Assembly (NCBI GenBank): GCA_016933575.1
Contig: JAFGAR010000064.1
Location: 64,001 to 128,000, forward strand
Direction of reading: 5' to 3'
Length of the DNA: 64,000 nucleotides
DNA from: Candidatus Thorarchaeota archaeon
Lineage (GTDB): Archaea; Asgardarchaeota; Thorarchaeia; Thorarchaeales; Thorarchaeaceae
A program made the position numbers and the translations under genes. Positions 1 to 15,087 of this stretch are shown here, one piece after another. Position 1 is the stretch's first letter, and each line of letters begins with the position of its first letter. A model generated the notes under the pieces. That model was not told the origin of the DNA. It made no database searches and saw only the letters and a list, made by a program, of their open reading frames with translations.

Positions 1-1800
1 CCAGATGCTATCGTTCAACCAATGACCCCTGAAGAGATTCGTTCACTCTATAAATTCGCAAATGCGGAAAAAATCCCTCTGGTTCCTAGAGGCGCAGGCA
101 CTTCTGGCTATGGTGGTGCAATACCACGAAAAGGAGGCGTTGTTGTTGATATGCGCCGTATGGATAATATTGTAACAGTTGATGAGAAGAATCTGACCGT
201 TGTTGTAGAACCCGGTATCTGCTGGTCCAATCTTCAACTAGAACTCAATCGACTTGGTCTCGACCTACGCTGCTATCCCTCATCTGCCCTCTCCGCCACA
301 GTTGGAGGCTGGGTAGCCCAAGGAGGCGATGGGATAGGTAGTTTGAAGTATGGGACTATCAACAAGAACTGTGTTGAATTTGAAGTAGTTCTTCCAAATG
401 AGAAGATAATTCGTACAAGTGATACAGATCTCTTTTGCGATACAGAGGGTATCCTTGGTATACTGACAAAGGTAACCCTAAAGATTAAGCCCTTGACCAG
501 GATCAAAGCCTTTGTCTCTAGCTTTCCAGAGAATTACCTAATGAATCTCGCAATCGAGAAGATTCTAGAAGACGGTCCACTCCCTTTCACAATAAAATTT
601 GAAGAATCTAAATACACAGACTTGAAGAAGTCTGTCTGGGAGGAGGACTGGAAATTCCCGTATCCTGTTCATCACTGTACTATTATGGTCGTCTACGAAG
701 GTGATGAAGAAGAGATCGAGACCGGTGCTGAAGTGGTTCGCCAAGTCACAGAGGCTCACAAAGGAGTCCTATATGATGACCATGTAGGCGAGCACGAGTG
801 GCATGAGCGATTCTACCCAATGAGAATCAAGAAGGCCGGACCTACCCTTGTAGTTGGACAAGCATTTGCACCACTCGAAAACTTAGGTGCTATCTTTGAT
901 GACTTCCAGTTTGAACAGGCATCTGCGAAGGCAGGTATTGATGGTTATGTCAATTCTAAGAACGCAGTCACAATGATGGGATATTTTCTCGAAGATGAAC
1001 GTCGTTCTTTCTATATGCTATCATGGTCTCAGAGCTTTGTCATTTTCAAAATTGCGCAACGTCACGGTGGACATCCACATTCAACTGGTATATGGTTCGC
1101 TAATTATGCACATATTTACTTCGGCAAACAGAGATTAGCTCGAATCCGAGCAGCGAAGCTGAAGTGGGATCAAAAAGAGATTTCGAATCCTGGTAAAATC
1201 TTTGCATATTGGCTTCCCTTCATGTTACGTGTGGGCAAGTACTTCATGTGGATTGGTTTCGATTTGCTACGGAATGGTTTTGGCAGGATTGCACCAATTC
1301 TTCTGAAATGGCTTCAGAATGTACCACCACTGAAGTGGTTATTACGGTGGGGTCGCGCTCACAGTCCTTGGCCGATTCAATACGGACTCGGGTGTTGTAT
1401 GGCTGATGGCGCAGCCGCAGTAGCATCACGATGGGATATAGAGAGATTCGGGATGCTCCCTCTCTTTGGACCCCGGCAGACGGATGTCCTTTGGATCTCA
1501 GGATCCCTTACAAAGAAGATGGCACCACGACTTCGTCGAATCTATGAACAGATGCCAGAGCCAAAGTATGTCATATCCTATGGCCAATGTGCAGCATCTG
1601 GTGGAATGTTTTTCGATGGATATTCTTTAATCGCTCCTGCTGATACGGTCGTGCCAGTGGACGTCTATATCCCCGGCTGTCCTCCCAAACCTGCTGACTT
1701 TGTGAGAGCTCACTTGATTTTACAGAACAAGATACGCGCTGGGACTACACACTGGCAAAAACGGTACGAGAATCAGGATTCGATGGGGTTGATTCAATAA
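1..1800 (+). CDS. nuoB: Fusion protein: FAD-binding oxidoreductase (GlcD/D-lactate dehydrogenase, VAO/PCMH family) + C-terminal NuoB-like [4Fe-4S] subunit; 5'-truncated by window edge
   Basis: Frame is open from base 1 (PDAIVQPMTPEE, typical FAD_binding_4 start). FAD motifs PRGAGTSGYGG, VEPG, YPSS..ATVGG and EGILGILT; FAD-oxidase C-terminal motif KWDQKEISNPGK. Then NuoB motifs WGRAHSPWP, GLGCC, PRQTD, IYEQMPEPKYVISYGQCAASGG and VDVYIPGCPP. Confidence 0.9.
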   Translation, partial: PDAIVQPMTPEEIRSLYKFANAEKIPLVPRGAGTSGYGGAIPRKGGVVVDMRRMDNIVTVDEKNLTVVVEPGICWSNLQLELNRLGLDLRCYPSSALSATVGGWVAQGGDGIGSLKYGTINKNCVEFEVVLPNEKIIRTSDTDLFCDTEGILGILTKVTLKIKPLTRIKAFVSSFPENYLMNLAIEKILEDGPLPFTIKFEESKYTDLKKSVWEEDWKFPYPVHHCTIMVVYEGDEEEIETGAEVVRQVTEAHKGVLYDDHVGEHEWHERFYPMRIKKAGPTLVVGQAFAPLENLGAIFDDFQFEQASAKAGIDGYVNSKNAVTMMGYFLEDERRSFYMLSWSQSFVIFKIAQRHGGHPHSTGIWFANYAHIYFGKQRLARIRAAKLKWDQKEISNPGKIFAYWLPFMLRVGKYFMWIGFDLLRNGFGRIAPILLKWLQNVPPLKWLLRWGRAHSPWPIQYGLGCCMADGAAAVASRWDIERFGMLPLFGPRQTDVLWISGSLTKKMAPRLRRIYEQMPEPKYVISYGQCAASGGMFFDGYSLIAPADTVVPVDVYIPGCPPKPADFVRAHLILQNKIRAGTTHWQKRYENQDSMGLIQ

Positions 1801-2318
1801 TGGCACTACGCGAAGATAGCGAACCCTATTGCTTAGCTTGGGTTGGTTTCCTCTTGATGGGTGCATATTATGCCAATTTCGGATACCAACTATGGACCAA
1901 TCCTGTTGCAGTATCTGCTTTCATCAACAACTCTCCCTCAATGCTAATCCTCCTTGGATTGCCTCCACTAATGGTGTTCCTGTTTACAGGGTACTTGCGA
2001 CCTTCTCGTGGAAAAGCAAAGATGAGCATGCTAGGTCCCTCTGTCATTGCAGGATTGTTCTTCGTGATTATATCATATCAGGTTGGATCAACGACTACTA
2101 TCCTCGGAGATCTGATAGTGTTTTCAGCATGGGGTATTGGAAGTGCTTTGTTGACAGCTGGAGGATTTTCAATTATGGCTTCTTTGGAGAAGAACACATC
2201 TCCTGGAATTATGGATATTAGTTCACTTCATTATGGTCCTGTAAAAGAAACGCCTGCACCTACTGAGGAGTCAGTACCTCAAGGCTCCGATGTAAAGCCA
2301 GCGGAATCGGCACAATAA
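1800..2318 (+). CDS. Hypothetical membrane protein (~4 TM), translationally coupled to the FAD-NuoB fusion
   Basis: TAATG stop/start overlap at 1798-1802; four hydrophobic segments and a Pro/Glu-rich tail. Confidence 0.75.
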   Translation: MALREDSEPYCLAWVGFLLMGAYYANFGYQLWTNPVAVSAFINNSPSMLILLGLPPLMVFLFTGYLRPSRGKAKMSMLGPSVIAGLFFVIISYQVGSTTTILGDLIVFSAWGIGSALLTAGGFSIMASLEKNTSPGIMDISSLHYGPVKETPAPTEESVPQGSDVKPAESAQ

Positions 2319-2321
2319 TTC

Positions 2322-2696
2322 CTAGTCTGTTTCTGGAAGCCATGCGAGAGCCGCAAAGGCCAGCAATAATCCACAGGCCATCCAGAAAAAGAGTAGAGCT
2401 CCCATTAGACCTTCTGGAAAGAGCGTTATGATAAGGAATCCATGGACACCACCTATGATTCCTGACAAAGTTGTCAGACTGACACGACCCGGTCTCGATT
2501 TGGTCCTTGCAAGAGCAAAAGTTGAGCATACGGTTACTATGCCACTCAGGAACAGAACTAGTTTAATCGCTATGTCTGAGATAGTAGCTGTTAGAATTAT
2601 CCAGAAGTATACTCCAAGGAGTCCCATCCCAATAAGAAGGACCAAGTAATAGAAAAATGTGCCACGGATGAATGACAACCAATTCGACCTCTTCAT
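2322..2696 (-). CDS. Hypothetical membrane protein (4 TM)
   Basis: 124-aa ORF with four hydrophobic helices, convergent with the previous gene. Confidence 0.7.
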   Translation of the reverse strand: MKRSNWLSFIRGTFFYYLVLLIGMGLLGVYFWIILTATISDIAIKLVLFLSGIVTVCSTFALARTKSRPGRVSLTTLSGIIGGVHGFLIITLFPEGLMGALLFFWMACGLLLAFAALAWLPETD

Positions 2697-2979
2697 TTGT
2701 TACTACGAGAAAGTCGAAGTGTTGTGCTGTATATTTAACTCCTTTGAGTGATGTTTGTTTGGGCGAATGGTTTTTAACATGCATTCAGAATGCGCCTGCT
2801 TAAGTTCGAAAGTACGGAACGTGACCATAAATGGTGATGTGCTGTGCAAGCCAGGATCAAAGATGCGGAGCTTAGAGAATGAAACATTTGTGCACTGAAA
2901 CCGCAAGAGATAGATATTGCAGACAAGAAGTCATTTTCCACAACTCACCTGGCGCTGAGTTTTCACTCTAGGAGGTCTA

Positions 2980-3432
2980 TTGATTACGATGAGGCTTTTC
3001 ATCGATTTCTTCCCGGTGCTTGTCTGGGCAGTATTAGTTATTGTCCTGATTCTCGGAATGTTAGTTGGATCTTGGGTATTGAGGCCTCATGTTCTCCAGA
3101 ATAGTGAAAAGACATCGAGCTACGAATGCGGTGAAGAACCAATAGGCCCCGCAAGAATTGCCTATCCCTACAACTATCTTGTCTATACTATCCTGTTTGT
3201 TGTTGTTGATGTGCTTGGCGCATTTCTGTGGTTACTTGCTGCATCCTCTTTTCGATTGAGCCCGACAATCGTTTGGCAAGTCCTTGTATTTGTGCTGATT
3301 CTTATGGGTGGTCTCGGCTTTGCCATGAAGATGCTTCCCCAGACTTTCCTCAGTGGAAAAGAAACTCTAGCACTATATCGCGAAGCTAAGGCTGCAAAGG
3401 AAAAACAAGAGCTTGAAGCAGGAGGTCACTGA
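2980..3432 (+). CDS. nuoA: Complex I-like subunit A (NuoA)
   Basis: KTSSYECGEEP loop, ILFVVVDV, 3 TM; GGAGG SD at 2971. Confidence 0.93.
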   Translation: MITMRLFIDFFPVLVWAVLVIVLILGMLVGSWVLRPHVLQNSEKTSSYECGEEPIGPARIAYPYNYLVYTILFVVVDVLGAFLWLLAASSFRLSPTIVWQVLVFVLILMGGLGFAMKMLPQTFLSGKETLALYREAKAAKEKQELEAGGH

Positions 3433-3436
3433 AGAG

Positions 3437-4081
3437 ATGCAACTCGATATATGGTTTGAAGAGGCTGAGTTCATTGTAATTGCTGCCATTGTCATTTTTC
3501 TTGCATACCTTGCACTGGAACATCGTGACATTGTCTACGCGGCATTCTTTTTTGGCTTCATGGCCTCTTTTGTTGCTGGTTTCTTTCTATTGCTTGAAGC
3601 ACCTTTCATTGCAGGTATGCAGATCGCTGTATACACTGGAGGGATTAGTGCATTGATAATCTTCGCAGTGCTTCTTCTACCCCGAGCCCAAGACTCTTCC
3701 TTGGAGGTCTTCGCTTCGCCTAGAAGAAGGAATGCTGGATTGGTACTATCAGCGATGGTTGGCTCATTGTCAGCAGCCCTAGCCCTCGTTTTTCCATGGT
3801 ACGAAACTTTCTCATCAGTGACTCCGCCACTTGAGAACAATCTTGAACTTCTCTCAAAATGGCTCTGGTCTGATCATGGTATCTATGTTCAGATGATTGC
3901 TCTCATCCTTCTCACAGCAATTGTTGGATCTATTGCTATTTTGAAGATGGAGAAAGCAGAACGTCTCACACCTATAGTAAGTGATTTTGGTGTTGAGTCA
4001 GTTCCTGAACCAATTGATGACGAAGCATCTGATATTGAAGATGAATCCCCGCAGAATGGGACTGAGGAGGTTGATACATAA
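3437..4081 (+). CDS. nuoJ: Complex I-like subunit J (NuoJ)
   Basis: LLEAPFIAGMQIAVYTGGISALIIFA motif; start moved to ATG 3437. Confidence 0.92.
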   Translation: MQLDIWFEEAEFIVIAAIVIFLAYLALEHRDIVYAAFFFGFMASFVAGFFLLLEAPFIAGMQIAVYTGGISALIIFAVLLLPRAQDSSLEVFASPRRRNAGLVLSAMVGSLSAALALVFPWYETFSSVTPPLENNLELLSKWLWSDHGIYVQMIALILLTAIVGSIAILKMEKAERLTPIVSDFGVESVPEPIDDEASDIEDESPQNGTEEVDT

Positions 4082-4401
4082 TGGTCCCCCTCTCCTGGTA
4101 TCTGGTGGTGGCGTTCATTCTCATAGGTCTCGGAATCTATGGAATGATGGTCAAGCGAAATCTCATACGTATTCTAATTGGAGCTGAAATCCTTGGTAAT
4201 GGAGTCAACATTGCCCTAGTTGCTGTTTCAATCTACAGCCCTGTCTTCACATTTACGGGACAGGGTTTACTCATGCTGGTGATCTCTGTGGCAGCAGCTC
4301 ACACAGCTCTTGCGATGGTTCTGATGCTTATTTACAATCAACGATACAAATCAGTTGACCTTGGTAGACCATTCAAACTGGAGGATGATAGCAATGCCTG
4401 A
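4081..4401 (+). CDS. nuoK: Complex I-like subunit K (NuoK)
   Basis: GIYGMMVKRNLIRILIGAEILGNG, GQG, 3 TM; the second conserved Glu (AAAE) is His here (AAAH). Confidence 0.93.
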   Translation: MVPLSWYLVVAFILIGLGIYGMMVKRNLIRILIGAEILGNGVNIALVAVSIYSPVFTFTGQGLLMLVISVAAAHTALAMVLMLIYNQRYKSVDLGRPFKLEDDSNA

Positions 4402-4903
4402 TGCATCGTCACTGGGTCGTGCAATCATCAATAAGCTGCCTGAGGTCGAGTCTAAACCACTTCAGGGAAATAAGATCGAGCTCCTGGTCCCTCATGAGAA
4501 AATTCGAGATGTGGTATCACTTATTGACGAATTGGTTCCCGATGCCTTACCCGAATCTGCATTTGGCATTGATCTTGAGGATGACAAATACGAAGTAGTC
4601 TACATATTTTGGTCTCATGAATCAACGATGCTCTGTCAGTTACGAGTTTCACTTGTAGGGGAGAAACCATCAATTCAGACTGTTAGCGACATATTTCCTG
4701 GGTTGGAATGGCATGAGCGTGAAACTAGTGAGATGTTCGGTATCACCTTTGAGAACCATCCTGACATGAGACCTCTCCTGCTGCCTGATGATTTGGTTGG
4801 AAAATATCCCATGAGAAAACGATTCAAGACCGATCGAAGTCGCCTTGAAGAAACTGGCCTTTCAACCCCTAGTCCTAGACCTGAACGTGGAGGTGGCGAA
4901 TGA
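4394..4903 (+). CDS. nuoC: Complex I-like subunit C (NuoC)
   Basis: WHERETSEMFGITFENHPDMRPLLLP...YPMRK signature. Confidence 0.93.
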   Translation: MPDASSLGRAIINKLPEVESKPLQGNKIELLVPHEKIRDVVSLIDELVPDALPESAFGIDLEDDKYEVVYIFWSHESTMLCQLRVSLVGEKPSIQTVSDIFPGLEWHERETSEMFGITFENHPDMRPLLLPDDLVGKYPMRKRFKTDRSRLEETGLSTPSPRPERGGGE

Positions 4904-6040
4904 ATGTGTCCAGATATCCTTGATGAAACCAGTGAGATCTGGTTTGGTCCTCAACATGTCAGTGCTCATGGGTGGGCTACAAAACTGAAACTTGTTGGAG
5001 ACTACATTGTCGAGTGTGACCCGAATGCTGGATATTTCCATCGTTCGGCTGAAAAATGTCTAGAGTTCCGTAATTTCAGGCAAGGTTCAATGGTATGTGA
5101 ACGTATCTGCATGATGGAAGCATTCGTTGCAGAATATCCCTATGTGGCTGCAGTCGAGAAGATTGTTGATCTTGAGGTCCCAGAACGCGCGAAAATCATG
5201 CGTACTATCATGATTGAGATGAATCGGATTCATTCTCTTCAGTTTTGGTGGGGTCAATTTGCAGGGGAGTTAGGTCTCTTTGCGATGCTGCTTTGGCCCT
5301 GGGTTGATAGAGAATATACACTTGATGCTTTTGAGGAACTGACTGGGTCTCGTCATACTGTATCCTATGTCACACCTGGCGGGGTTAAGTATGATTTCAC
5401 TCCCAAGTTCTTGGAAAAATTTGAAATTGCACTCTCTAGAGTGGAAGAACGAATCCCGATCTTCAAGGACATGTTTCTTGGTAGCCCTACGTTCAGGTTA
5501 CGTACCGAGGGAGTAGGTCAGTACACTGCAAAACAAGGTCTCAAGTGGGGCTTGAGTGGTCCTAATATCAAAGCTTGTGGTATTCCAATGGACCTCCGTA
5601 AGGATGACCCTGACTCGAATCTTGCATATGATATGATTGATTGGGAAGTACCCATTACAATAAACGAGAATCATCCTGGTGAATGCGATGCATTTGACAG
5701 ACTAGTTCAGCGATTCAAAGAAATTGAGACTTCAGTTGGTATTATCAGAAAGCTCTTACCTCTTGTCCCTGAAGGTCCAATCATTGACCCCAAGGCTCGA
5801 GCCAAAGTCAATCGTCTACCTGAAGGAGAGGGTTATGGTAGGATTGAGGGTACTCGTGGAATCACAACCGTTTGGTTGAAGACATTCGATAAGGCTCAGA
5901 CTCCATATAGAGCCAAAATACGTGGTCCTTGCTTCGCATCATATTATGCATTGAAGCATATTGTGCCAGGTGCTCGTTTTGCGGACTTTCCAGCGATATT
6001 TGGAAGCTTGGATCCTTATCCCGGGTGGTGGGACAGATAG
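4904..6040 (+). CDS. nuoD: Complex I-like subunit D (NuoD), without NiFe ligands
   Basis: FGPQHVSAHG, GYFHRSAEK, EMNRIHS, PGGV, PYRAKIRGP, C-terminal GSLDPYPGWWDR; no CxxC pairs. Confidence 0.93.
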   Translation: MCPDILDETSEIWFGPQHVSAHGWATKLKLVGDYIVECDPNAGYFHRSAEKCLEFRNFRQGSMVCERICMMEAFVAEYPYVAAVEKIVDLEVPERAKIMRTIMIEMNRIHSLQFWWGQFAGELGLFAMLLWPWVDREYTLDAFEELTGSRHTVSYVTPGGVKYDFTPKFLEKFEIALSRVEERIPIFKDMFLGSPTFRLRTEGVGQYTAKQGLKWGLSGPNIKACGIPMDLRKDDPDSNLAYDMIDWEVPITINENHPGECDAFDRLVQRFKEIETSVGIIRKLLPLVPEGPIIDPKARAKVNRLPEGEGYGRIEGTRGITTVWLKTFDKAQTPYRAKIRGPCFASYYALKHIVPGARFADFPAIFGSLDPYPGWWDR

Positions 6041-6053
6041 GAGGTGCGATGAG

Positions 6054-7199
6054 ATGCAGTTCGATTTCATAACTTGGCTTGACGGGCTTTATAATTGGTT
6101 CATCGGTCTCTTGATCTGGTTTTGGAATGTCATTGAATGGTTCTTCTTTTGGATCATTGATCTTATCAATGGAGTATGGGCCATAGTAATAATCCCTGAG
6201 AATTTCATGTTTCTATTCCGTTCTATTATATTCCCTGGACTCATCTTCATCGTGCTTGCACTCATTTTCAGTATCTGGTTCATCCGGAAGACATGGGCAC
6301 GAATTCAGGATAGACGTGGACCGACACATATGGGCAAGTATGGTGGTCTACAATTGTTTGCGGATGCAATCAAACTCATGGCTAAGGAAACAATAATTCC
6401 CGACAAGGCAAGACGTTGGGCTTATAGGATTCTACCTTCGTTACTCCTCTTAATTGTACTACTTCCCTTCGCATTCATACCCTGGGATCCAATATGGAAT
6501 ATTCTTGGAAATCCTGCCTTTCCCGACCTTTCTGTGAGCCTAGTGCTAGTCTTTGCATTTCTCACTGCAGTGCCTGTACTCTCACTACTAATCGGTTGGG
6601 TCTCAGGTTCCAAGTATTCTCTGATTGGAGGATTTCGAGCTGCAAATAACCAATTTGCCTCCGAGATACCCATGGTCATTTCTTCTATTGGTCCTGCAAT
6701 GCTTGCTGGTTCTCTGAGTCTCTTCGGAATTGTTCAAGCGCAGACCAGCATCTGGTACATTGTTCTTCTCCCAATCAACTTTACCACCTTCATGGTTGCT
6801 GCAATTGCCTCTGTAGGAACGTTTCCCTTTGATGCTCCCGTTGCAGACTCCGAGATTATCTTCGGGTGGCGAACAGAGCTATCGGGCATCTACTTCACGT
6901 TGGTCTATTTTGCTGAGTTTGCCGAACAAATGCTTTACTCAGCCTTAATGGTTGTACTCTTCTTTGGTGGTTTTAATGGACTTCCATTCTTACCAGGAAT
7001 TGTCAATTTCCTAATCAAGTGGCTTGTCGTATTATTCATCTTTGTAGTTGTGACATCTTCCTTCTATAGAATCAGACAGGACCAGATAGTGCACCTTTGT
7101 TGGAAATACTTACTGCCACTTTCAATACTTAATGTAGTTCTTGTCATGTTTGCAGTTGTCTACATACCAGGACTACTTCCGCTTGTGATAGGAGGATAA
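6054..7199 (+). CDS. nuoH: Complex I-like subunit H (NuoH) with Trp-rich N-terminal extension
   Basis: RKTWARIQDRRGP, GLQLFADAIKLMAKE, SKYSLIGGFRA, PFDAPVADSEI; GAGGTG SD before ATG 6054. Confidence 0.94.
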   Translation: MQFDFITWLDGLYNWFIGLLIWFWNVIEWFFFWIIDLINGVWAIVIIPENFMFLFRSIIFPGLIFIVLALIFSIWFIRKTWARIQDRRGPTHMGKYGGLQLFADAIKLMAKETIIPDKARRWAYRILPSLLLLIVLLPFAFIPWDPIWNILGNPAFPDLSVSLVLVFAFLTAVPVLSLLIGWVSGSKYSLIGGFRAANNQFASEIPMVISSIGPAMLAGSLSLFGIVQAQTSIWYIVLLPINFTTFMVAAIASVGTFPFDAPVADSEIIFGWRTELSGIYFTLVYFAEFAEQMLYSALMVVLFFGGFNGLPFLPGIVNFLIKWLVVLFIFVVVTSSFYRIRQDQIVHLCWKYLLPLSILNVVLVMFAVVYIPGLLPLVIGG

Positions 7200-7203
7200 T
7201 GCG

Positions 7204-7635
7204 ATGGGTTTCCTAAGTAATCTTGGTGAAATATTTCAAATCCTGAAACACGTCTTTCGTCAAACATTCAAAAGACCATTCACTTACTTCTATCCATTTG
7301 AAGACAGACCTTATCCTGAGAGAACCCGTGGCAGACACATCCACATTCGTGAGAACTGTACTGCATGTGCTCAGTGTGTGAGAGCATGTCCTGTTGCAGC
7401 AATTCGTATTGACAAGGAAGATAGAAAGTTCGAGAAGGATGCAGCTCTCTATTTTGATTATACGCGTTGCATTTTCTGCGGAGATTGCGTCAGTGCCTGT
7501 CGATTCGATGCACTTTTCCATACGAAAATCGTGGACCTCTCGGAGGGTGACCGTGATGACCTTATCTATGGCCCTGATAAGATAACAAAACTCGATAGAG
7601 ACCCTCTTGAGTGGCGTGGAAGGAGGTTCAGGTAG
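7204..7635 (+). CDS. nuoI: Complex I-like subunit I (NuoI), 2x[4Fe-4S]
   Basis: TYFYPFE..PERTRGRH; CTACAQCVRACP and RCIFCGDCVSAC. Confidence 0.94.
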   Translation: MGFLSNLGEIFQILKHVFRQTFKRPFTYFYPFEDRPYPERTRGRHIHIRENCTACAQCVRACPVAAIRIDKEDRKFEKDAALYFDYTRCIFCGDCVSACRFDALFHTKIVDLSEGDRDDLIYGPDKITKLDRDPLEWRGRRFR

Positions 7636-9134
7636 TGTTGTTTGGAATTCCCTTCATGGCACTATCACTCGCCGTGATGTTCATCGGAGGTCTCTTCATC
7701 TACCTGTTCAAGGCTAGCATTGGCGATGCAGCTGGTAGAATTGCAGTTGCTGTGTCTCTTGTAGGAACCATCCTGATGATTCCTCCATTCTACGAGCTCA
7801 TGATGTTTGGCTCATCCGTTGAAACAGCAGTATGGTCAAATCTACTTGAGCCATTTGGGCTGTACTTGGATCCAATTGCATTTCCAATCACTTTTGCTGT
7901 AGTAGTTCTTGGATTTCTATCAGTTGTCTATGCGGTGGGTTATACCAAACATACTGAGAACAAACCTACTTTTTTCGCAAATCAATTGTTCTTCATAATG
8001 GGAATGACATGGGTAACTCTTGCGACTAATATGATCGAGTTCTTTATAGCTTGGGAGCTTATGTTGGTGCCAAGCTACTTCCTGATTCTGTTCTGGGGTT
8101 TCCCTGAAACCAGAAAACGTACTGCTCTGAAATTCTGGTTGTACACACAATCTGGAGCTGTCTGTATCCTGATAGGCTTTGGACTTCTCTATGCTCAGGG
8201 TGGTTCATTTGTTCTGGCAAATATTGTTGCTAATGGTGACCTCATCTTCAAGGTCATTTTCATACTTCTAGCTGCTGGATTCCTTGTGAAAATGGCAGTT
8301 TTCCCAATCCACTGGTGGTTACCACCAGTTCATGCTGAGGCTCCAACTCCAATCTCAGTCCTATTGTCTGGTGCTATGATTGAAACCGGCGCCTATGCTC
8401 TGGTACGATTCGGTACCCTGACCCTTTACGATGCAGCGATATCGCTCTCAATCTGGGTAGCTGCACTCGGTGTTATCACGATGTTCTATGGCGGTTTCAT
8501 GGCACTAGCTCAGGTGGACATCAAGAGACTCCTTGCTTACTCCTCCGTTTCACAGATGGGGTACGTACTATTTGCTCTCGGTTCTGTTACAATCATAGGT
8601 GTTTCAGGTGGAATGTTCCATCTCATCAATCATGCTTTCTCAAAGGGTCTGCTGTTTATGACCGCTGGAGCTGTTATTCATCAGACCGGACTTCGTGATA
8701 TTAAGAAGATGGGAGGTCTCTCAAATAAGATGCCTATCACCGCCTTCGCAGCTGCCATCGGAATGATGAGCATTGCCGGTAGTCCTCCGCTCTCCGGATT
8801 CGCTTCGGAGTGGATGATGTTCCTCGGGGGATTTAATCGTGCTATAATTACCGATCCATTTACCCATATTGTCCTAGGAACTAACTTACCATTTCTGATT
8901 TTAGCAATTTTAGCTGTTTCCAGCTCTATCCTCAGCGCAGCATACATGCTTCGTTTCTTCTGGCGAGTCTTCCTTGGGCCTCATCCCGAAGAGCTCGAAG
9001 ATGTTAAGGAAAGTCCAAGATCCATGACCATTCCGATGATCATCCTTGGTGTCCTCATTGTAATCTTTGGAATATTCCCGAGCTTGGCACTAGATGTCAT
9101 TGTCCCGGCGTTTTCGAGTGCACTTGGTCCGTGA
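7635..9134 (+). CDS. nuoM: Additional NuoM-like antiporter subunit (second M-type / MrpD-related proton-translocating subunit)
   Basis: FFIAWELM, VKMAVFPIHWWLP..HAEAPTP, DIKRLLAYSSVSQMGY, NHAFSKGLLF, GFASE (NuoM-type TM12 Glu); GTG start at 7635 overlaps the nuoI stop. Confidence 0.85.
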   Translation: MLFGIPFMALSLAVMFIGGLFIYLFKASIGDAAGRIAVAVSLVGTILMIPPFYELMMFGSSVETAVWSNLLEPFGLYLDPIAFPITFAVVVLGFLSVVYAVGYTKHTENKPTFFANQLFFIMGMTWVTLATNMIEFFIAWELMLVPSYFLILFWGFPETRKRTALKFWLYTQSGAVCILIGFGLLYAQGGSFVLANIVANGDLIFKVIFILLAAGFLVKMAVFPIHWWLPPVHAEAPTPISVLLSGAMIETGAYALVRFGTLTLYDAAISLSIWVAALGVITMFYGGFMALAQVDIKRLLAYSSVSQMGYVLFALGSVTIIGVSGGMFHLINHAFSKGLLFMTAGAVIHQTGLRDIKKMGGLSNKMPITAFAAAIGMMSIAGSPPLSGFASEWMMFLGGFNRAIITDPFTHIVLGTNLPFLILAILAVSSSILSAAYMLRFFWRVFLGPHPEELEDVKESPRSMTIPMIILGVLIVIFGIFPSLALDVIVPAFSSALGP

Positions 9135-9144
9135 GGTGAATCAA

Positions 9145-11397
9145 ATGCTCTTTGGTCTACCAGAATATCTAATCATCGTCATTCCACTTGCAGGTTCCTT
9201 ATTTGTCCCAATAATTGGGAGGTATAGTACTCGTGCTAGAGACTGGACTCCTGCATTGTTGATGGGCATCTCTATGATTCTATGCTGGTCTCTCATACCT
9301 GACATTGGATCAGTCCCTAAGACCTGGAATTGGATCAACATTCCTGGACTTGTGATTCCCTTTAGTATGCTTCTTGACTCACTGTCCGTCATCATGGGTG
9401 TACTTGCTAGCACGCTCTGTTTTCTCATATACGTGTACAGCACCGAGTACATGGCACACGAGGGAGATAGAGACCGCTTCTTCTTCCTGATGCTTGCCTT
9501 CGGGGGTGGTATGCTTACCCTGGTCCTCTCAAACAACCTCCTGATTGCGTTTATTGGATGGGAGATCATGGGATTTTGTAGTTACGGACTCATTGGTTTC
9601 TGGAATGACAAGCGCAATCCTCCAGAGGTAGACCCAACTGGCTATGAGTCAAGTAATCCGTTGCTGCAGTTCAAGACCGAGGGCGAGTACAATACTCATT
9701 GCGGAACAAAGGCTTTCGTGGTAACAAGAATTGGTGACGCACTGATGCTGGGCGGCATCCTGCTTCTATTTACATTCACAGGGTCATTTCTCTTTCAAGA
9801 CACATCAATTGGAAGTCAGGCTGTTGAAGGTATTGCAGAACATGGCGGCTGGATAACTGCCCTAGCTGGTGTGGGTCTTCTGTTGCCCACGCTTTTGTTA
9901 ATCTTTGCTGGCGCGATTGGAAAGTCAGGTCAATTCCCTCTGCAGGTATGGCTCCCCGAAGCCATGAGTGGTCCGACTGCGGTTTCTGCTTTGATTCATG
10001 CTGCAACCATGGTCAAAGCAGGAGTCTATATCACTGCAAGATTTCTCTTGACAATCGTATCTGCTACAGAGACAAGCGGACACTCTTCATCTGCTATTGG
10101 GATGTTTCCGCTACAGATAGGCTTCCCTGATGCGTTCACCTTCTTTGCCATAGTTGCAATCGTTGGTGCTCTCACCGCATTCATTACTGGTACAATGGGA
10201 ATGGTCTCAAATGAACTGAAGCAGGTGTTGGCATTCTCAACTCTTAGCCAACTAGGCTATATGATGCTTGCAATAGGTACTGCTGGCATGTTGACGCATT
10301 ATGATGTTGCTTATCTGAGTAGCGTCATGCATGTCGTCAGTCATGGTGCATTCAAAGCGTTGCTGTTTCTCTCATCTGGTGGGATTATCCACGCGTTACA
10401 TACCAAGTATATGAGTAAGATGGGCGGGTTGAAGAAGTATATGCCCAAGACCTTTGCGCTTATGTGGATTGGAGTGCTAGCGTTGTCAGGAATTCCTCCA
10501 TTCTCAGGTTTCTGGTCAAAAGACTCAATCATAGAGCATGTATATGCACTTGGTGTTGAAACGCCTCTGGGAATTTTCCTGTTCATTCTTGCTATCGCAG
10601 CTGCGGCTTGTACAATCTTCTATAGCATTCGACTCATGGGAATGGTCTTCTATGGCCCATCAGAGTTTGACGAACATGACCAAGAGGAGGAATCAATCAG
10701 TAGCCATAATGACAAAGAGGAATCCGAAGAATCTCATGACGAACATCGCGGGGTACCCTCTGATCCAGGTCCAGCTATGATGATTCCGCTCTACATTCTA
10801 GCAGCATTCACTATCATTGCCTTCATAATCTATCCAATGATACAGAATATTGTCCTCCAGACTAATAGGGACTTGTTTATCATATTTCTTGAGGATATGG
10901 TAGCTGCGAAATTTGGTCCAGAAGGTTTAGTTCCCTTCACACTCACCATTGGAGCACTTGCTCTTGGTGGGATTCCAGCCTATTGGATTTACATTAAAAA
11001 CCAAGATACTCCAAACTCAATCATTCCAGAGAATGGAATTCTTAGGAAGTTGCACAACTTCTTGAAGCACCGCTGGTATATCAATGAGGGATACTATTGG
11101 TTTGTCAACAAGTTCCTCAGATTTGCTGATCTCTGGCGCAGGGAGATTGATGAGCCTATAATTGATGGCATTGACTTCAAGTCTGCAGCCACAGCCCAGG
11201 TACTTGCGACTAAGATTCGATGGTTTGATGATAATGTTGTGGATGGTTTTGCTGAGGCCGTGTCAACAAAGAGTGTTGAAGCTTCTGAGGTTGGACTTGA
11301 GTCTCAGACAGGAAAGATCAATGACTACGTCGGAGTGGTGATTTTCGGAGTAGGTCTCCTGATCATCATTGGACTTCTATCATTGGGGGTGCTCTAA
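9145..11397 (+). CDS. nuoL: Complex I-like subunit L (NuoL) with elongated lateral helix
   Basis: FIGWEIMGFCSYGLIGFW, KAFVVTRIGD, GKSGQFPLQVWLPEAMSGPTAVSALIHAATMVKAG, GFWSKD, terminal QTG..DY + TM; GAGGTGA SD before ATG 9145. Confidence 0.95.
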   Translation: MLFGLPEYLIIVIPLAGSLFVPIIGRYSTRARDWTPALLMGISMILCWSLIPDIGSVPKTWNWINIPGLVIPFSMLLDSLSVIMGVLASTLCFLIYVYSTEYMAHEGDRDRFFFLMLAFGGGMLTLVLSNNLLIAFIGWEIMGFCSYGLIGFWNDKRNPPEVDPTGYESSNPLLQFKTEGEYNTHCGTKAFVVTRIGDALMLGGILLLFTFTGSFLFQDTSIGSQAVEGIAEHGGWITALAGVGLLLPTLLLIFAGAIGKSGQFPLQVWLPEAMSGPTAVSALIHAATMVKAGVYITARFLLTIVSATETSGHSSSAIGMFPLQIGFPDAFTFFAIVAIVGALTAFITGTMGMVSNELKQVLAFSTLSQLGYMMLAIGTAGMLTHYDVAYLSSVMHVVSHGAFKALLFLSSGGIIHALHTKYMSKMGGLKKYMPKTFALMWIGVLALSGIPPFSGFWSKDSIIEHVYALGVETPLGIFLFILAIAAAACTIFYSIRLMGMVFYGPSEFDEHDQEEESISSHNDKEESEESHDEHRGVPSDPGPAMMIPLYILAAFTIIAFIIYPMIQNIVLQTNRDLFIIFLEDMVAAKFGPEGLVPFTLTIGALALGGIPAYWIYIKNQDTPNSIIPENGILRKLHNFLKHRWYINEGYYWFVNKFLRFADLWRREIDEPIIDGIDFKSAATAQVLATKIRWFDDNVVDGFAEAVSTKSVEASEVGLESQTGKINDYVGVVIFGVGLLIIIGLLSLGVL

Positions 11398-12978
11398 TTG
11401 CAGGTAGACTCTACAACTTTGATAACAAGTATTCCAATGAATATCCTCGTCCTCATACTTGTCATTCCTCTAGTTGGTGCGGTCCTTGCATACATCGCAG
11501 GCAGCAAGGGTGCACGTGCAATCACACTCCTGATTACGACACTCGAACTAGGCTTAGCCCTTCTACTCATTCTAGGTACTCCTTCAGTTGGTCCAGATCC
11601 TGGTGGAATGAGTTACACATGGATCTATACGATTGCGAGACTTGGAACCACTGTTGATTCTCCTGTCTTTCAAATCATTCTTGGTGTTGATGGAATCTCA
11701 GTAGTAATGATCCTCCTCTCCAATCTCGTCGTATGGATTGCAGCAATTGCATCAAATCATATCAAGAACGCAGAAGGTGTATACTACTCCTTATTCCTGC
11801 TCCTGCAGACAGGCCTCCTTGGAGTTTTTGTATCTCTTGATCTCATTGGATTCTTCATCTTTTGGGAACTTGTCCTTGTACCAATGTTTTTCATCATTGG
11901 CAGATGGGGCGAAGATGGAAGCAGACACGCGGCTATCAAGTTCTTCATCTATACTCATCTTGGTTCTGCAGTAATGCTCGTTGGATTCTTCTACATCTAT
12001 TTCATGTCTTATCAGTTCAATATTCTTGGATATCCAACTGCAGTCCCAACATTCAGCATGGTTGCGCTTCGGAACATCGGACTTGACCCAACCATTCAGA
12101 TAGGTTTTGCTCTTGCCATATTCATGGGTGCAGGCGTGAAACTTCCAGTATTTCCATTACATAACTGGTTGCCATGGGCTCACGTAAAGGCACCAACTCC
12201 TGGTTCAGTTATCCTCGCTGGAATTCTTCTGAAGATGGGTGGGTATGCATTCATCAGACTCGGACTTTGGATGGTCCCAGAAGCAATGGCTAGACTTGCC
12301 ATTCCCTTTGCCTTTGTGGCTGTCTTCACATGTATCTACGCTGCATTTACCGCACTTGCTCAGACTGATATGAAGAGCCTTGTAGCTTATACGTCTATCA
12401 ACCACATGTCATGGGTCCTACTTGGCGTTGCTGCGTATGCGGCTGCCTACAATTCTCCAGATGCAGCTATTCGAGCTGCTGCGAACTTGGCTATCCAAGG
12501 TTCTATATTCATGATGTTCTCACACGGCACCATAATCTCTGTCATGTTCATTGTAGCTGGGCAGCTCAAATATAGTGTAGGTACTCGTGAGATTCCCGAA
12601 GTTAAGGGATTGATGACACAGGCTCCTAAACTCTCAGCGATTATGATCATTGCTACCTTGGCAGCTTTCGGTCTTCCTGGATTTAGTGGATTCATAGCAG
12701 AGGCACTGGTCATCTTTGGAGCCATTGTCATTCATCCGTGGACCGCATTCATCGCGTTTGGCATTTTCTTGACAGTAGGCTACATGCTCTGGATGTTAAA
12801 TCGAATTGTCTTTAGTGATATTGACCCCGAAAAAAGCGTGAATGAAGCCGCACGAAGCGATCTCATTGCTCCAATCCTCATGTTAATTCCTGTGATTCTG
12901 CTTGGGATTTGGCCTGATCTGATATTGAATCTCGTTCAACCAGTTGTTGAACTGATGCTGAGCGGAGGTTTACCATAA
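11398..12978 (+). CDS. nuoM: Complex I-like subunit M (NuoM)
   Basis: FFIFWELVLVPMFFIIGRWG, KLPVFPLHNWLPWAHVKAPTPGSVILAGILLKMGGY, PGFSGFIAE. Confidence 0.95.
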   Translation: MQVDSTTLITSIPMNILVLILVIPLVGAVLAYIAGSKGARAITLLITTLELGLALLLILGTPSVGPDPGGMSYTWIYTIARLGTTVDSPVFQIILGVDGISVVMILLSNLVVWIAAIASNHIKNAEGVYYSLFLLLQTGLLGVFVSLDLIGFFIFWELVLVPMFFIIGRWGEDGSRHAAIKFFIYTHLGSAVMLVGFFYIYFMSYQFNILGYPTAVPTFSMVALRNIGLDPTIQIGFALAIFMGAGVKLPVFPLHNWLPWAHVKAPTPGSVILAGILLKMGGYAFIRLGLWMVPEAMARLAIPFAFVAVFTCIYAAFTALAQTDMKSLVAYTSINHMSWVLLGVAAYAAAYNSPDAAIRAAANLAIQGSIFMMFSHGTIISVMFIVAGQLKYSVGTREIPEVKGLMTQAPKLSAIMIIATLAAFGLPGFSGFIAEALVIFGAIVIHPWTAFIAFGIFLTVGYMLWMLNRIVFSDIDPEKSVNEAARSDLIAPILMLIPVILLGIWPDLILNLVQPVVELMLSGGLP

Positions 12979-14483
12979 TGCTGCAATTAGACATCTTGCT
13001 TGACAGCCTAAGGGCTTTATTAGCCCCTCTAAGAGACCTATTGCTCGCAATTGTACCAGCTGAATGGATCATGTCCCTTCCTGCTATTACTCTGGTAGTC
13101 TTTGGATTACTTGCCCTAATGGTCGGACTTCGATATAATCCATTAGTCATAAGCTTCATCGGTGTCATTCTTGCAACATTTGAGATGCTTCTGTTCGATC
13201 CCAGTGCTATGAGTGGCTATTCGTTTGGAACATTATTCATTCGCGATGCTTTCACCGATTTCTTCATCTACATTGTTCTTATCGTTGCTTTCCTAGTCTT
13301 GCTCTCTTCCACTCTTTGGGGGGGTGACAAAGGGACCTACAATTTCCTACTTCTCCTCTCTTTTGCAGGAGCTCTCTGGGTAATTATGGCGACAGATCTT
13401 GTAGCTCTATTTCTTGCCTGGGAACTGATGTCCACGCCAACTTATGTTCTCGTTGCTCTTAGTCCAAGACGGGAATCTGTAGATGGCGCTACAAAATACT
13501 TCGTTATGGGCTTGCTTGCAACAAACCTCATGCTACTTGGCATTGCTCTGACTATTGGTGTTACTGGAACCACTGACCTTCACACCATTGGAGTGTTCAT
13601 TAATAGCCTATGGGCTTCACCAGCTGGTAGTGAACCAGCGGTCTACACAATGCTTCTTGCAATGGTCTTGTTTATTGTTTCATTCGGATTCAAGGTCGGT
13701 ATATTTCCTGGATGGCAATGGGTTCCTGATGCATATGCAAGTGCTGATGGTAGTGTCACTGCTTATCTTGCAGGAGGTTCTAAAAAGACAGGAGTGAGTG
13801 CCCTTCTACGAATCTTGATGGTTGCATTCTTTGTTGCTAGGACTGAGTGGACTCTATTAATAGCTGGTGTAGCAATCCTAACAATGATCATTGGTAATCT
13901 ATTAGCTCTCGCTCAGAAGGATATCATGAGGATGTTAGCGTATTCCAGCATTGCGATGATGGGTTATCTCTTCATTGGTATCGCCGCAGCTAACGAATTG
14001 GGCATGGCTGCAGCTAGTTTTCATGCATTCACTCATGCAATAATGAAGACAGCTGCCTTCATCCTTGTGTGGATGCTATCTTTAAGACTCACGAAGAGAA
14101 TAACCTATGATGACCTCGCGGGATTGAACAAGCGAGCACCCATTGCAGCAGCTATGTTTGCCATACTGATGCTCTCTCTTGCAGGACTTCCTGTAGGTGT
14201 AGGGTTCTGGTCAAAATTAGTACTCTTCCAGAGTGCAATCCTCGCAGACATGTGGTGGTTGGCTTTGATAGGTCTCTTGAACTCAGTCTTCTCCTTGGGC
14301 TATTATTTACGAATACTGAAATATACTTACATGATTGAACCTGTTGATGACTCGAAATTAAATCTACCAAGAGTACCCCTATTTGCAGTAGGCATTTGTG
14401 TAGCTATTGTTCTCTTGCTGTTGGTATTTCCAAACCTTGTCCTTGATTATGCCTTTCAAGCGGCATTGACCTTCTTCCCATAG
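12978..14483 (+). CDS. nuoN: Complex I-like subunit N (NuoN)
   Basis: LAWELMS, ATKYFVMG, FKVGIFPGWQWVPDAY, GNLLALAQKDIMRMLAYSSI, GFWSK. Confidence 0.95.
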   Translation: MLQLDILLDSLRALLAPLRDLLLAIVPAEWIMSLPAITLVVFGLLALMVGLRYNPLVISFIGVILATFEMLLFDPSAMSGYSFGTLFIRDAFTDFFIYIVLIVAFLVLLSSTLWGGDKGTYNFLLLLSFAGALWVIMATDLVALFLAWELMSTPTYVLVALSPRRESVDGATKYFVMGLLATNLMLLGIALTIGVTGTTDLHTIGVFINSLWASPAGSEPAVYTMLLAMVLFIVSFGFKVGIFPGWQWVPDAYASADGSVTAYLAGGSKKTGVSALLRILMVAFFVARTEWTLLIAGVAILTMIIGNLLALAQKDIMRMLAYSSIAMMGYLFIGIAAANELGMAAASFHAFTHAIMKTAAFILVWMLSLRLTKRITYDDLAGLNKRAPIAAAMFAILMLSLAGLPVGVGFWSKLVLFQSAILADMWWLALIGLLNSVFSLGYYLRILKYTYMIEPVDDSKLNLPRVPLFAVGICVAIVLLLLVFPNLVLDYAFQAALTFFP

Positions 14484-14535: not shown

Positions 14536-15087
14536 TCAAATCTCTGAATCTCTCTCCCTTTCCTGCAATATAGCCAGTTTGGTACATTCTTCGAATAGCT
14601 TATTGATATTGTGTCCTGTGCGTGCTGATGTTTCAAAATAACGGACACTCAACCATTTCCTGAGCATTTCACCAGCCTCTCGAGGAACAAGTCTGTCAGC
14701 TCTATCAACTTTATTTGCAACTAATGCAATAACAGCTTCTGGGCAGACAGATCGGAAACTGTTGTACCATTCATTCACATTGAGATAGGTATCCGGTCTT
14801 GTAACATCATAAACAATGAATGCCATTGATGATCCAGTCATGTATCTTTGCCGAAGGTCTTTATACGTGGGTTGTCCTGCTAGATCCCACAAGACTACTT
14901 GCGTCTGAAAATGTTCTCCATCAATTTCAATATTTACAATCTTAACTGCTATACTAGTACCAATTGTAGCCTTATACTGCTCACCAAATCTGTTCTCCGT
15001 GTATCGCATTATACAGCTGGTCTTGCCAACTGCTCCATCTCCTAATGCCACCATCTTGAGAACATATTGCGGACCTTCATCAGTCAA
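14536..15087 (-). CDS. Rab/Ras-like small GTPase (eukaryotic signature protein)
   Basis: G1 GDGAVGKT, G2 YKATIG, G3 WDLAGQ, G4 NKVD, G5 ETSAR; no C-terminal Cys prenylation motif. Confidence 0.93.
   Translation of the reverse strand: MTDEGPQYVLKMVALGDGAVGKTSCIMRYTENRFGEQYKATIGTSIAVKIVNIEIDGEHFQTQVVLWDLAGQPTYKDLRQRYMTGSSMAFIVYDVTRPDTYLNVNEWYNSFRSVCPEAVIALVANKVDRADRLVPREAGEMLRKWLSVRYFETSARTGHNINKLFEECTKLAILQERERDSEI

Follow-up and report, generated by a model that had tools for sequence, protein, structure and literature searches.

Complex-I-type ion pumps swap their input heads, which may be NuoEFG, FpoF, ferredoxin docking on NuoI or hydrogenase modules, and we know of no described pump of this type that carries a redox enzyme covalently on NuoB, in a membrane-proximal position by the carrier pocket. 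The locus analysed here raises the question of whether such a pump exists and what the attached enzyme would do. The window (64,000 nucleotides of a Candidatus Thorarchaeota archaeon, GenBank assembly GCA_016933575.1, contig JAFGAR010000064.1, forward-strand positions 64,001 to 128,000; G000:C38:64001-128000 in our numbering) opens within a gene in which a flavin adenine dinucleotide (FAD) oxidoreductase runs on into NuoB. The evidence set out below shows that this fusion is real and conserved, and that it represents a variant of the complex-I-type pump in which a redox module is attached at an unprecedented site.

Frame 1 ran without a stop from the window edge up to the TAA at 1798-1800, and the ATG lay at G000:C38:63860, 141 nt 5' of the window start, giving a product of 646 amino acids (aa; P0002). 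An earlier reading of the letters alone (the sequence-only reading) had set the feature at 1-1800; the open frame there stands, but the gene extends beyond the 5' edge of the window, which holds its 3' 599 codons. Pfam placed FAD_binding_4, FAD-oxidase_C (scores in Table 1) and Oxidored_q6/NuoB (87 bits) on this single chain. The claim of one frame joining an FAD oxidase to a complete NuoB was thus borne out by the open reading frame (ORF) and the Pfam domains, and also by relatives and contigs. The strings quoted for the flavin half were all present (ISNPGK at 1180-1197, DGYVNSKNAV, GHPHSTG within its loop), as were the quoted NuoB cysteines (CC, GQC and PGCPP), each at the position given in Table 1.

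In a word-indexed search of 5.8 billion proteins we found 44 more full-length fusion clusters, 644-667 aa long (most of them exactly 646) and 73-93% identical; nearly all carried the label Thorarchaeota. When 1.84 billion clusters at 50% identity were scanned exhaustively with HMMER, the full-length architecture appeared in one cluster only. The fusion was a single ORF in 26 of the 36 other family genomes of the first search, and five more held parts of it at contig ends or at a scaffold gap. When the organism's family was sampled evenly, 12 of 16 genera had the fusion as a single ORF, which contradicts the possibility, raised by the sequence-only reading, that the homologs are always separate genes; genus g2 had an unfused ortholog (58-59% identity) and no ortholog was found in the remaining three genera of this sample (g4, g6, g32).

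Could the fusion be an artefact, arising from a chimeric assembly or from two neighbouring genes, frameshifted, that happen to read through? Two genomes might suggest so, as in G082 the gene occupied two overlapping frames (L122, G082:C5:93253-95186) and in G013 it was interrupted. The G013 interruption is, however, a 100-N scaffold gap, and the G082 split comes from a one-base indel in one assembly, at codon 435 and shortly ahead of ISNPGK, with two congeners intact; the contig naming suggests a long-read assembly, and an error of sequencing is more probable than a naturally split gene. The same 646-aa ORF recurred in dozens of independent assemblies. A 93-kb contig of the probable source run covered positions 1-3500 with one mismatch and no indel, and a 331-base contig from a different study covered 1259-1589, over the tether-NuoB junction, with 21 substitutions and no gaps; a stop or frameshift between the domains, against which the sequence-only reading had warned, was not seen in these contigs. 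By column conservation among 45 family members, NuoB ranked first (92%) and the tether second (88%), above the two parts of the flavin domain, the cap (83%) and the FAD-binding domain (82%); all parts of the fusion are thus under constraint. An artefact therefore has scarcely any probability left, and this explanation is already refuted as far as sequence data allow.

The phylogeny of the FAD domain, proposed earlier as a check, grouped the fused domains in a single clade (support 96/94), with the unfused g2 proteins P0053/54 as its sister (100/100 for the pair), and the fusion clade with this sister lay near Thorarchaeal 573-aa paralogs. Judged from this tree the fusion state is of single origin, through one fusion event or one fission. 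P0053/54 retain a tail ending in PPLKWI, which matches the junction of the fusion with the N-terminal helix of NuoB, and since these proteins branch outside all fusions both directions, fusion and fission, are possible. No description of an FAD-NuoB fusion was found in the open-access full-text literature on Thorarchaeota, Asgard or archaea, and the NCBI records for the fusion carry the plain name NuoB.

The C-terminal half belongs to the NuoB family. It passed both NCBIfam models (NF005012, 180.7 bits against a cut-off of 116; TIGR01957, 173.2 against 142.7) and PF01058 (86.7 bits against 27), and the four N2 ligands C512, C513, C577 and C607 were invariant in 45 of 45 family members. The CCMAD noted in place of the CCxxE of NuoB is correct in this genome; its fifth residue was Asp in 37 and Glu in 8 of the 45, so that it reads as a conservative change, and the nearest stand-alone NuoBs (59-67% identity, CCM[AT]E) have Glu. 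A structural model of residues 440-646 matched complex I PSST/NuoB chains with Z scores of 12.7-14.9 over 116-148 residues and MBS/MBH subunits with 12.3-13.4; complex I, NDH, MBS and MBH subunits as a whole spanned 12.3-14.9, and soluble hydrogenase small subunits reached at most 7.1. With NuoB/Nqo6/PSST (NDUFS7)/NdhK the protein thus has in common the fold, the four N2 cysteines, the NCBIfam scores and the place of sole gene serving a nuo operon. It differs from them in its additional 480-residue N-terminal flavoprotein and tether, in the Asp of most family members, and in being encoded outside the operon, in a unit with a 172-aa membrane protein.

That the fusion protein is the NuoB of the adjacent nuo operon is indicated by gene content. 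The fusion ends 1.2 kb upstream of nuoA, and annotation of the operon genes gave no nuoB and no nuoEFG or fpoF in this operon. The fusion was the only complex-I-type NuoB of the genome; the other five Oxidored_q6 genes were of hydrogenase types, and the closest of them reads GSCNGCDIE (a CxxC motif) and stands beside a second NuoD-like gene on contig C57. No ortholog of this nuoD was found in three of the four fusion-less genera (g2, g4 and g6, one genome each), where the only matches to this NuoD (32-35%) were equivalent to the second locus on C57. A sole complex-I-type NuoB that is lost together with nuoD argues that the two serve the same complex.

Two observations on other NuoB-like proteins are added here. 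The nearest stand-alone NuoBs (L023:10001-10561, L025:1330-1911) were orphans outside nuo operons, beside hypE/hypC/hypF/hypD, on contigs that also encode Kelch-repeat proteins and were judged Asgard-like by their neighbouring genes, without a taxon label; the nearness of hyp genes is probably coincidental. P0311 (533 aa) matched the NuoB part over residues 113-211 (53% identity) and in a second stretch, and may be another kind of NuoB fusion.

The fold alignment to NuoB started at residues 477-488, which places the join at the N-terminal helix of NuoB and bears out the attachment point proposed from the letters. In solved complex I structures this helix lies at the membrane surface of the Q-module. 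The tether before it (residues 447-488) was rich in Trp, Phe, Leu, Arg and Lys, with a hydrophobic moment of 0.45-0.55 and a maximal 19-residue Kyte-Doolittle mean of 1.09; it is an amphipathic linker, as had been proposed, and no stretch of it is hydrophobic enough for a transmembrane helix. The helix was predicted with a predicted local distance difference test score (pLDDT) of about 60-79. Unfused and FeS-fused relatives carry a homologous segment after the flavin domain, some relatives having transmembrane tails, and this makes the membrane-surface tail older than the fusion. The conserved amphipathic tether and the homologous or transmembrane tails of relatives together suggest that the flavin module sits at the membrane surface.

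The full-length model of the fusion had a pLDDT of 82. Its flavin domain superposed on mouse LDHD with a template modelling (TM) score by target of 0.86 and a root-mean-square deviation of 2.7 A, on LctD with a TM score of 0.80 and on alkyl-DHAP synthase (AGPS) with about 0.68 (0.65-0.70). A 40-sequence profile of its subfamily matched mouse LDHD, LctD and a further D-lactate dehydrogenase from end to end (E ~1e-54). The GlcD equivalogs were not reached (TIGR00387, 131.3 bits against a cut-off of 567.9; NF008408, 87.8 against 897). In mouse LDHD, His398, His405 and Glu442 bind Mn2+, Arg347 and His443 bind the substrate, and each is essential (PMC10589216). The metal motifs are absent, as the sequence-only reading had said: the three metal ligands had no counterpart in the profile alignment, the hairpin of residues 355-385 at the site of the ligand histidines has no His here and none conserved in the subfamily, and Glu442 falls in a three-residue LDHD insertion that the subfamily lacks. 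As both the metal site and the equivalog score fail, the flavin half is not filed as a D-lactate dehydrogenase or GlcD.

The retained residues tell another part of the story. R317 was Arg in all 45 fusions and in 36 of 40 subfamily members; H407 aligns with the catalytic His443 of LDHD in the fusion clade and is Tyr in 31 of 40 of the wider subfamily. The substrate had been called probably not classical D-lactate; as R317 and H407 are kept, it may still be an anionic compound of the 2-hydroxyacid kind. His405 and His407 were specific to the fusion clade and its unfused sister, the subfamily having mostly Arg and Tyr, and only in the fusions were H402, H405 and H407 all invariant, giving HGGHxH, a clade-specific loop that could form a new metal or substrate site. 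The FAD-binding domain includes the motifs PRGAGTSGYGG and TVGGWVAQGGDGIGS. The FAD-binding motifs were likewise invariant across the 45 family members, and with R317 and the HGGHxH loop they make the domain look catalytic. LDHD (mouse/human), LctD (Acetobacterium woodii) and GlcD thus share with it the fold, the FAD motifs and the carboxylate-binding Arg; unlike them the fusion has no Mn/Zn His/His/Glu ligands and has a C-terminal membrane-surface tail.

The active site had also been described as non-canonical; the triad is indeed missing, but this is not special to the fusion and is common to a whole subfamily. The metal-free site and the motifs EWxERFYPMRxKxxGP, DDER and GGxxYSxG were common to four kinds of protein: unfused proteins of 474-532 aa, the 573-aa Thorarchaeal paralogs with hydrophobic C-terminal tails, FAD-FeS-CCG proteins of 870-1030 aa, and the NuoB fusion. 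The subfamily comprised 923 clusters at E <=1e-30 and occurs in Methanosarcinales, Desulfitobacterium, Carboxydothermus, Dehalococcoidia, Archaeoglobi and others. By profile and fold the flavin domain is thus assigned to a metal-free branch of the D-2-hydroxyacid dehydrogenase fold, a branch without a characterised member; such Asgard genes have been annotated Dld in published work (PMC9723677).

A lipid-like substrate, suggested earlier from the kinship with AGPS, was not supported. AGPS shares with the flavin domain the superfamily and the lack of a metal triad, and comes next among the structural matches after LDHD and LctD, but the fold is nearer LDHD, the AGPS sequence alignment covered the N-terminal half only, and nothing points to an acyl/alkyl-DHAP pocket. 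The HxH at 405-407 may resemble an AGPS-type loop. Elsewhere in the genome (G000:C5:103048-104673) a separate 564-codon FAD_binding_4 protein shows the pattern ...SHFSHMYQNGGSIY... / ...MSHQHGVGLSR..., with one in-frame TGA near its end; we take its SHQHGVG to resemble the His-rich catalytic loop of AGPS, which would make it a possible ether-lipid enzyme in an archaeon. The nearest non-Thorarchaeal unfused relative of the flavin domain, P0055 (40% identity; L032:3361-6722), has a UbiD-family decarboxylase on one side and a 4HBT thioesterase on the other; past the decarboxylase comes a CDP-alcohol phosphatidyltransferase. Both the UbiD and the 4HBT family are frequently associated with the biosynthesis of prenylquinones.

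Loss of the metal triad also allows that the flavin domain is no longer an enzyme and has a structural or assembly role, as the VAO-family L-galactono-1,4-lactone dehydrogenase has in plant complex I. That enzyme is an assembly factor that binds the membrane arm of complex I on the other side of the membrane. A VAO-family flavoprotein on complex I assembly intermediates does exist (PDB 7a24, chain z, among the sequence matches), physically on the complex in a non-covalent association, but it is only distantly related to the fusion (E 2e-7 with a single sequence, 1e-19 with the subfamily profile). Given that the FAD-binding motifs, R317 and the active-site loop are invariant, that the metal-free state is ancestral to a large subfamily with stand-alone enzymes in it, and that a dedicated Fe-S partner gene has been kept, we hold a purely structural role to be very improbable.

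This partner is a divergently transcribed upstream gene for a 407-aa protein with two [4Fe-4S] motifs (Fer4_8) and two complete CCG domains, all of whose cysteines were invariant. It is HdrD/GlpC/TfrB-like, with every named family match below cut-off, the best being the thiol:fumarate reductase TfrB (169 bits against a cut-off of 385). In most relatives the CCG gene was adjacent and divergent or within ~2 kb. Proteins of the FAD subfamily are fused to, or paired with, HdrD/GlpC-like Fe-S proteins, and the natural FAD-FeS-CCG fusions of the same subfamily were 36-39% identical. These FAD-FeS-CCG proteins and the 'Dld'+HdrD pairs of anaerobes and Asgard have in common with the present system the subfamily motifs, the missing triad and the HdrD/GlpC-like partner; their flavin C-terminus leads to a transmembrane tail or to their own Fe-S/CCG domain, whereas in the fusion it leads to NuoB. 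Arrays of CCG and FAD gene pairs next to cytochrome c maturation genes also occur in Thorarchaeal genomes. In another Thorarchaeotal contig (L034:1-13100, JBHLRW010000042.1) three pairs of CCG and FAD-oxidoreductase genes (573, 573 and 492 aa) stood in an array with small membrane proteins (one weakly DUF2231), followed by the cytochrome c maturation genes ccmA/B/C/E and mutS; this array was not found in the window's own genome, which is 85% complete.

Further upstream of the CCG gene lie a polyprenyl synthase, a TPR protein, a geranylgeranyl-reductase-family (GGR) gene and mutS. In relatives the polyprenyl synthase and the CCG gene flank a UbiA-family gene that passes the MenA model (TIGR00751, 124 against 102 bits). 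In at least seven genomes the MenA-like gene and the polyprenyl synthase were found at a distance of 1.5-3.5 kb to the fusion. The synteny of genus g2 was mutS ... GGR - polyprenyl synthase - MenA-like - CCG - FAD, with no nuo genes downstream, and in G028 the MenA-like gene was again beside the unfused gene. The presence of the g2 pair and the lack of this nuoD in G028 imply that the flavin/CCG pair can function without the pump. The MenA-like/polyprenyl neighbourhood, the sole connection to lipids that was found, suggests a prenylquinone partner rather than a lipid substrate.

Table 1. Features of the fusion gene and its surroundings, in window positions
Feature	Position	Strand	Basis or remark
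FAD oxidoreductase-NuoB fusion gene	1..1800	+	codons 48-646 plus stop; ORF, three Pfam domains, conservation
FAD-binding domain (PF01565 FAD_binding_4)	1..420	+	130 bits, full profile length; LDHD fold match; pLDDT mostly >90
Substrate/cap domain (PF02913 FAD-oxidase_C)	550..1200	+	weak match, 36 bits; ends with ISNPGK
R317	808..810	+	equivalent of LDHD Arg347; in subfamily motif EWxERFYPMR
Hairpin DGYVNSKNAV	940..969	+	at the position of HxGDGNxH of D-lactate dehydrogenases; neither metal-binding His
HGGHPHSTG loop	1063..1089	+	in place of LDHD G-E-H-G-I-G; Glu ligand absent; H407 aligns with LDHD His443
Aromatic/basic amphipathic tether, residues 447-488	1198..1323	+	predicted single long helix; no transmembrane segment
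NuoB (Nqo6/PSST) domain, residues 489-646	1324..1797	+	opens with N-terminal helix PPLKWLLRWGR
Cys512-Cys513 tandem	1393..1398	+	N2 motif GCCMAD; invariant 45/45
Cys577 (GQCA)	1588..1590	+	third N2 ligand; invariant
Cys607 (PGCPP)	1678..1680	+	fourth N2 ligand; invariant
172-aa multi-pass membrane protein	1800..2318	+	no family; ATG overlaps fusion TAA (TAATG)
124-aa membrane protein	2322..2696	-	between fusion unit and nuoA; no Pfam/NCBIfam match
nuoA-J-K-C-D-H-I-M'-L-M-N operon	2980..14483	+	four antiporter-like subunits

The 172-aa membrane protein is, from the overlap of start and stop codons, probably translationally coupled to the fusion. It occupied the same position in 11 relatives (34-63% identity), had no Pfam or NCBIfam match, and its Atlas matches were all below 0.9. 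This and the 124-aa protein, both multi-pass, were kept between the fusion and nuoA in all relatives examined, and they may be extra subunits or anchors. Directly after nuoN follow a Ras-family small GTPase (PF00071, E 9e-42; 14536-15087, minus strand), a family typical of Asgard genomes, and then a PAS/GAF histidine kinase (15169-17139). Upstream of the window, the 200-nt divergent intergenic region between the CCG gene and the fusion (L002:15660-15859) held several A/T-rich TATA-like elements and the palindrome GCACAACGGTGTGC. Two metatranscriptome runs of the source study contained next to none of the sequence words of the locus and are uninformative on its expression.

How might these parts be wired? 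The flavin and the HdrD-like protein might replace NuoEFG or FpoF and feed electrons through Fe-S clusters into NuoI and NuoB, making the whole a substrate:carrier proton pump. The operon without nuoEFG or fpoF would fit such a direct input, the flavoprotein is the only extra redox protein physically attached, and the two [4Fe-4S] motifs and the CCG clusters of the partner could form the bridge. The attachment, however, is at the membrane-side N-terminal helix of NuoB and not at the NuoI face where known inputs and ferredoxin dock, no Fe-S path from the flavin to N2 is evident, and the module's relatives work in the absence of a pump. With donors of the 2-hydroxyacid class at about -190 mV and an acceptor at the menaquinone level, there would be little force to drive a four-pump complex. 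Taken together, these points make direct input quite unlikely.

The opposite direction, in which ferredoxin enters at NuoI and electrons leave through the flavin/HdrD-like module to a disulfide, a 2-oxoacid, fumarate or similar, has a proposed counterpart. In Methanomassiliicoccales an Fpo-like 'headless' complex together with HdrD has been proposed as a ferredoxin:heterodisulfide oxidoreductase (PMC7374477), and the headless 11-subunit core beside an HdrD-like gene matches this architecture. This is the closest system-level analogy, sharing the complex-I-type core without an input module and the HdrD-type CCG protein; the methanogen system has no flavoprotein and no covalent link, its association is hypothetical, and Thorarchaeota are not methanogens. 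Published work on other Asgard classes notes both 'Dld'+HdrD pairs, which it links to a disulfide like that of coenzyme M and coenzyme B, and a complex I without NuoEFG (PMC9723677), and a NuoEFG-less, hydrogenase-like complex I has been noted in Heimdallarchaeia (bioRxiv 10.1101/2024.07.04.601786). The NuoD of the window reads ERICMME and ends in DPYPGWWDR, with no NiFe ligands and no canonical quinone-binding Tyr, so that a non-quinone exit is conceivable, and TfrB is the best named match of the CCG protein, far below cut-off as its score is. On the other side, the model for Methanomassiliicoccales has itself yet to be proven, no route is known by which the buried N2 could reach an external cluster, dehydrogenases are the norm among flavoproteins of this fold, and the MenA neighbourhood argues for quinone. 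A terminal reductase of this kind therefore seems unlikely to us. The nearest non-Thorarchaeal relatives of this NuoD (51-52% identity) likewise lack the NiFe Cys ligands and the canonical quinone Tyr; as these relatives are also without the Cys ligands, the idea of an 'ex-hydrogenase', in which NuoD lost its NiFe site as the flavin was gained, was dropped.

We favour a partnership at the level of a lipophilic carrier, in which the tethered flavin/HdrD-like module exchanges electrons with the pump through that carrier, and we give this reading a probability of about one half. What favours it over an input at NuoI or a reductase wired to N2 is the place of the module, at the N-terminal helix of NuoB and the membrane surface. 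The gene would supply the NuoB, carrier of N2, of a Thorarchaeal 'headless' complex-I-like ion pump, its N-terminal FAD dehydrogenase domain being linked by the membrane-surface amphipathic helix of about 40 residues. By analogy with GlpABC, GlcDEF and Dld-type enzymes, flavin domain and HdrD-like partner would form a membrane-surface module running from FAD through Fe-S to CCG clusters, and in relatives this module would work on its own. The fusion would place it next to the carrier (quinone) pocket, at the base of the peripheral arm, where module and pump could share a lipophilic carrier locally and bypass the NuoI entry used by NuoEFG or FpoF. The module would pass electrons between a soluble substrate and the lipophilic carrier or a dithiol.

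Two modes of this carrier-level partnership can be drawn, and both electron directions are thermodynamically coherent. In the first, a donor at about -190 mV would reduce a menaquinone-level carrier and the four-pump complex would run in reverse to yield reduced ferredoxin, which would suit an organism with the Wood-Ljungdahl pathway as a sink. In the second, ferredoxin would reduce the carrier via the pump, and the module would re-oxidise the carrier on an acceptor of higher potential.

Several points weigh against the carrier-level partnership. The fusion and nuoA-N are separate transcription units, with the opposite-strand 124-aa gene between them, and the position of the flavin relative to the pump was not confidently predicted (tether pLDDT ~60). 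The pairing of the FAD and CCG proteins is putative, drawn from gene order and natural fusions. As NuoD lacks the canonical quinone Tyr, the pocket may have a ligand other than a standard quinone. This genome is without the syntenic MenA; its only MenA-like gene is on contig C57 and scores 74 bits, below the cut-off, and neither MenD (TIGR00173) nor MqnA/D (PF02621) was found in the genome, which at 85% completeness is not evidence of absence.

The surroundings of the MenA-like gene on C57 (G000:C57:55300-65600) are of some interest in themselves. It lies ~6 kb upstream of a second membrane complex with two 405-aa ORFs, the MbhJ-like small subunit reading GSCNGCDIE and a 425-aa gene like NuoD or a NiFe large subunit; this complex is probably a group-4-hydrogenase or of the Mrp type.

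A closer union than carrier sharing would make the module the pump's own catalytic head, at a site without precedent, with electrons passing between N2, or a bound and non-exchanging carrier in the altered NuoD pocket, and the CCG clusters and flavin. We judge this distinctly improbable; if true, the enzyme would by itself be a complete ferredoxin:X or X:ferredoxin oxidoreductase, independent of any free quinone pool, and a new class of complex-I-type machine.

For the metal-free 'Dld-like' subfamily (>900 clusters), which is unstudied, HdrD-paired and widespread in anaerobes, the locus offers a handle. For the pump, if the module does exchange electrons with it, the fusion would represent a new way of coupling ion translocation to an organic substrate that is oxidised or reduced. 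Asgard archaea are usually drawn as fermenters, and their bioenergetics bear on models of the origin of eukaryotes.

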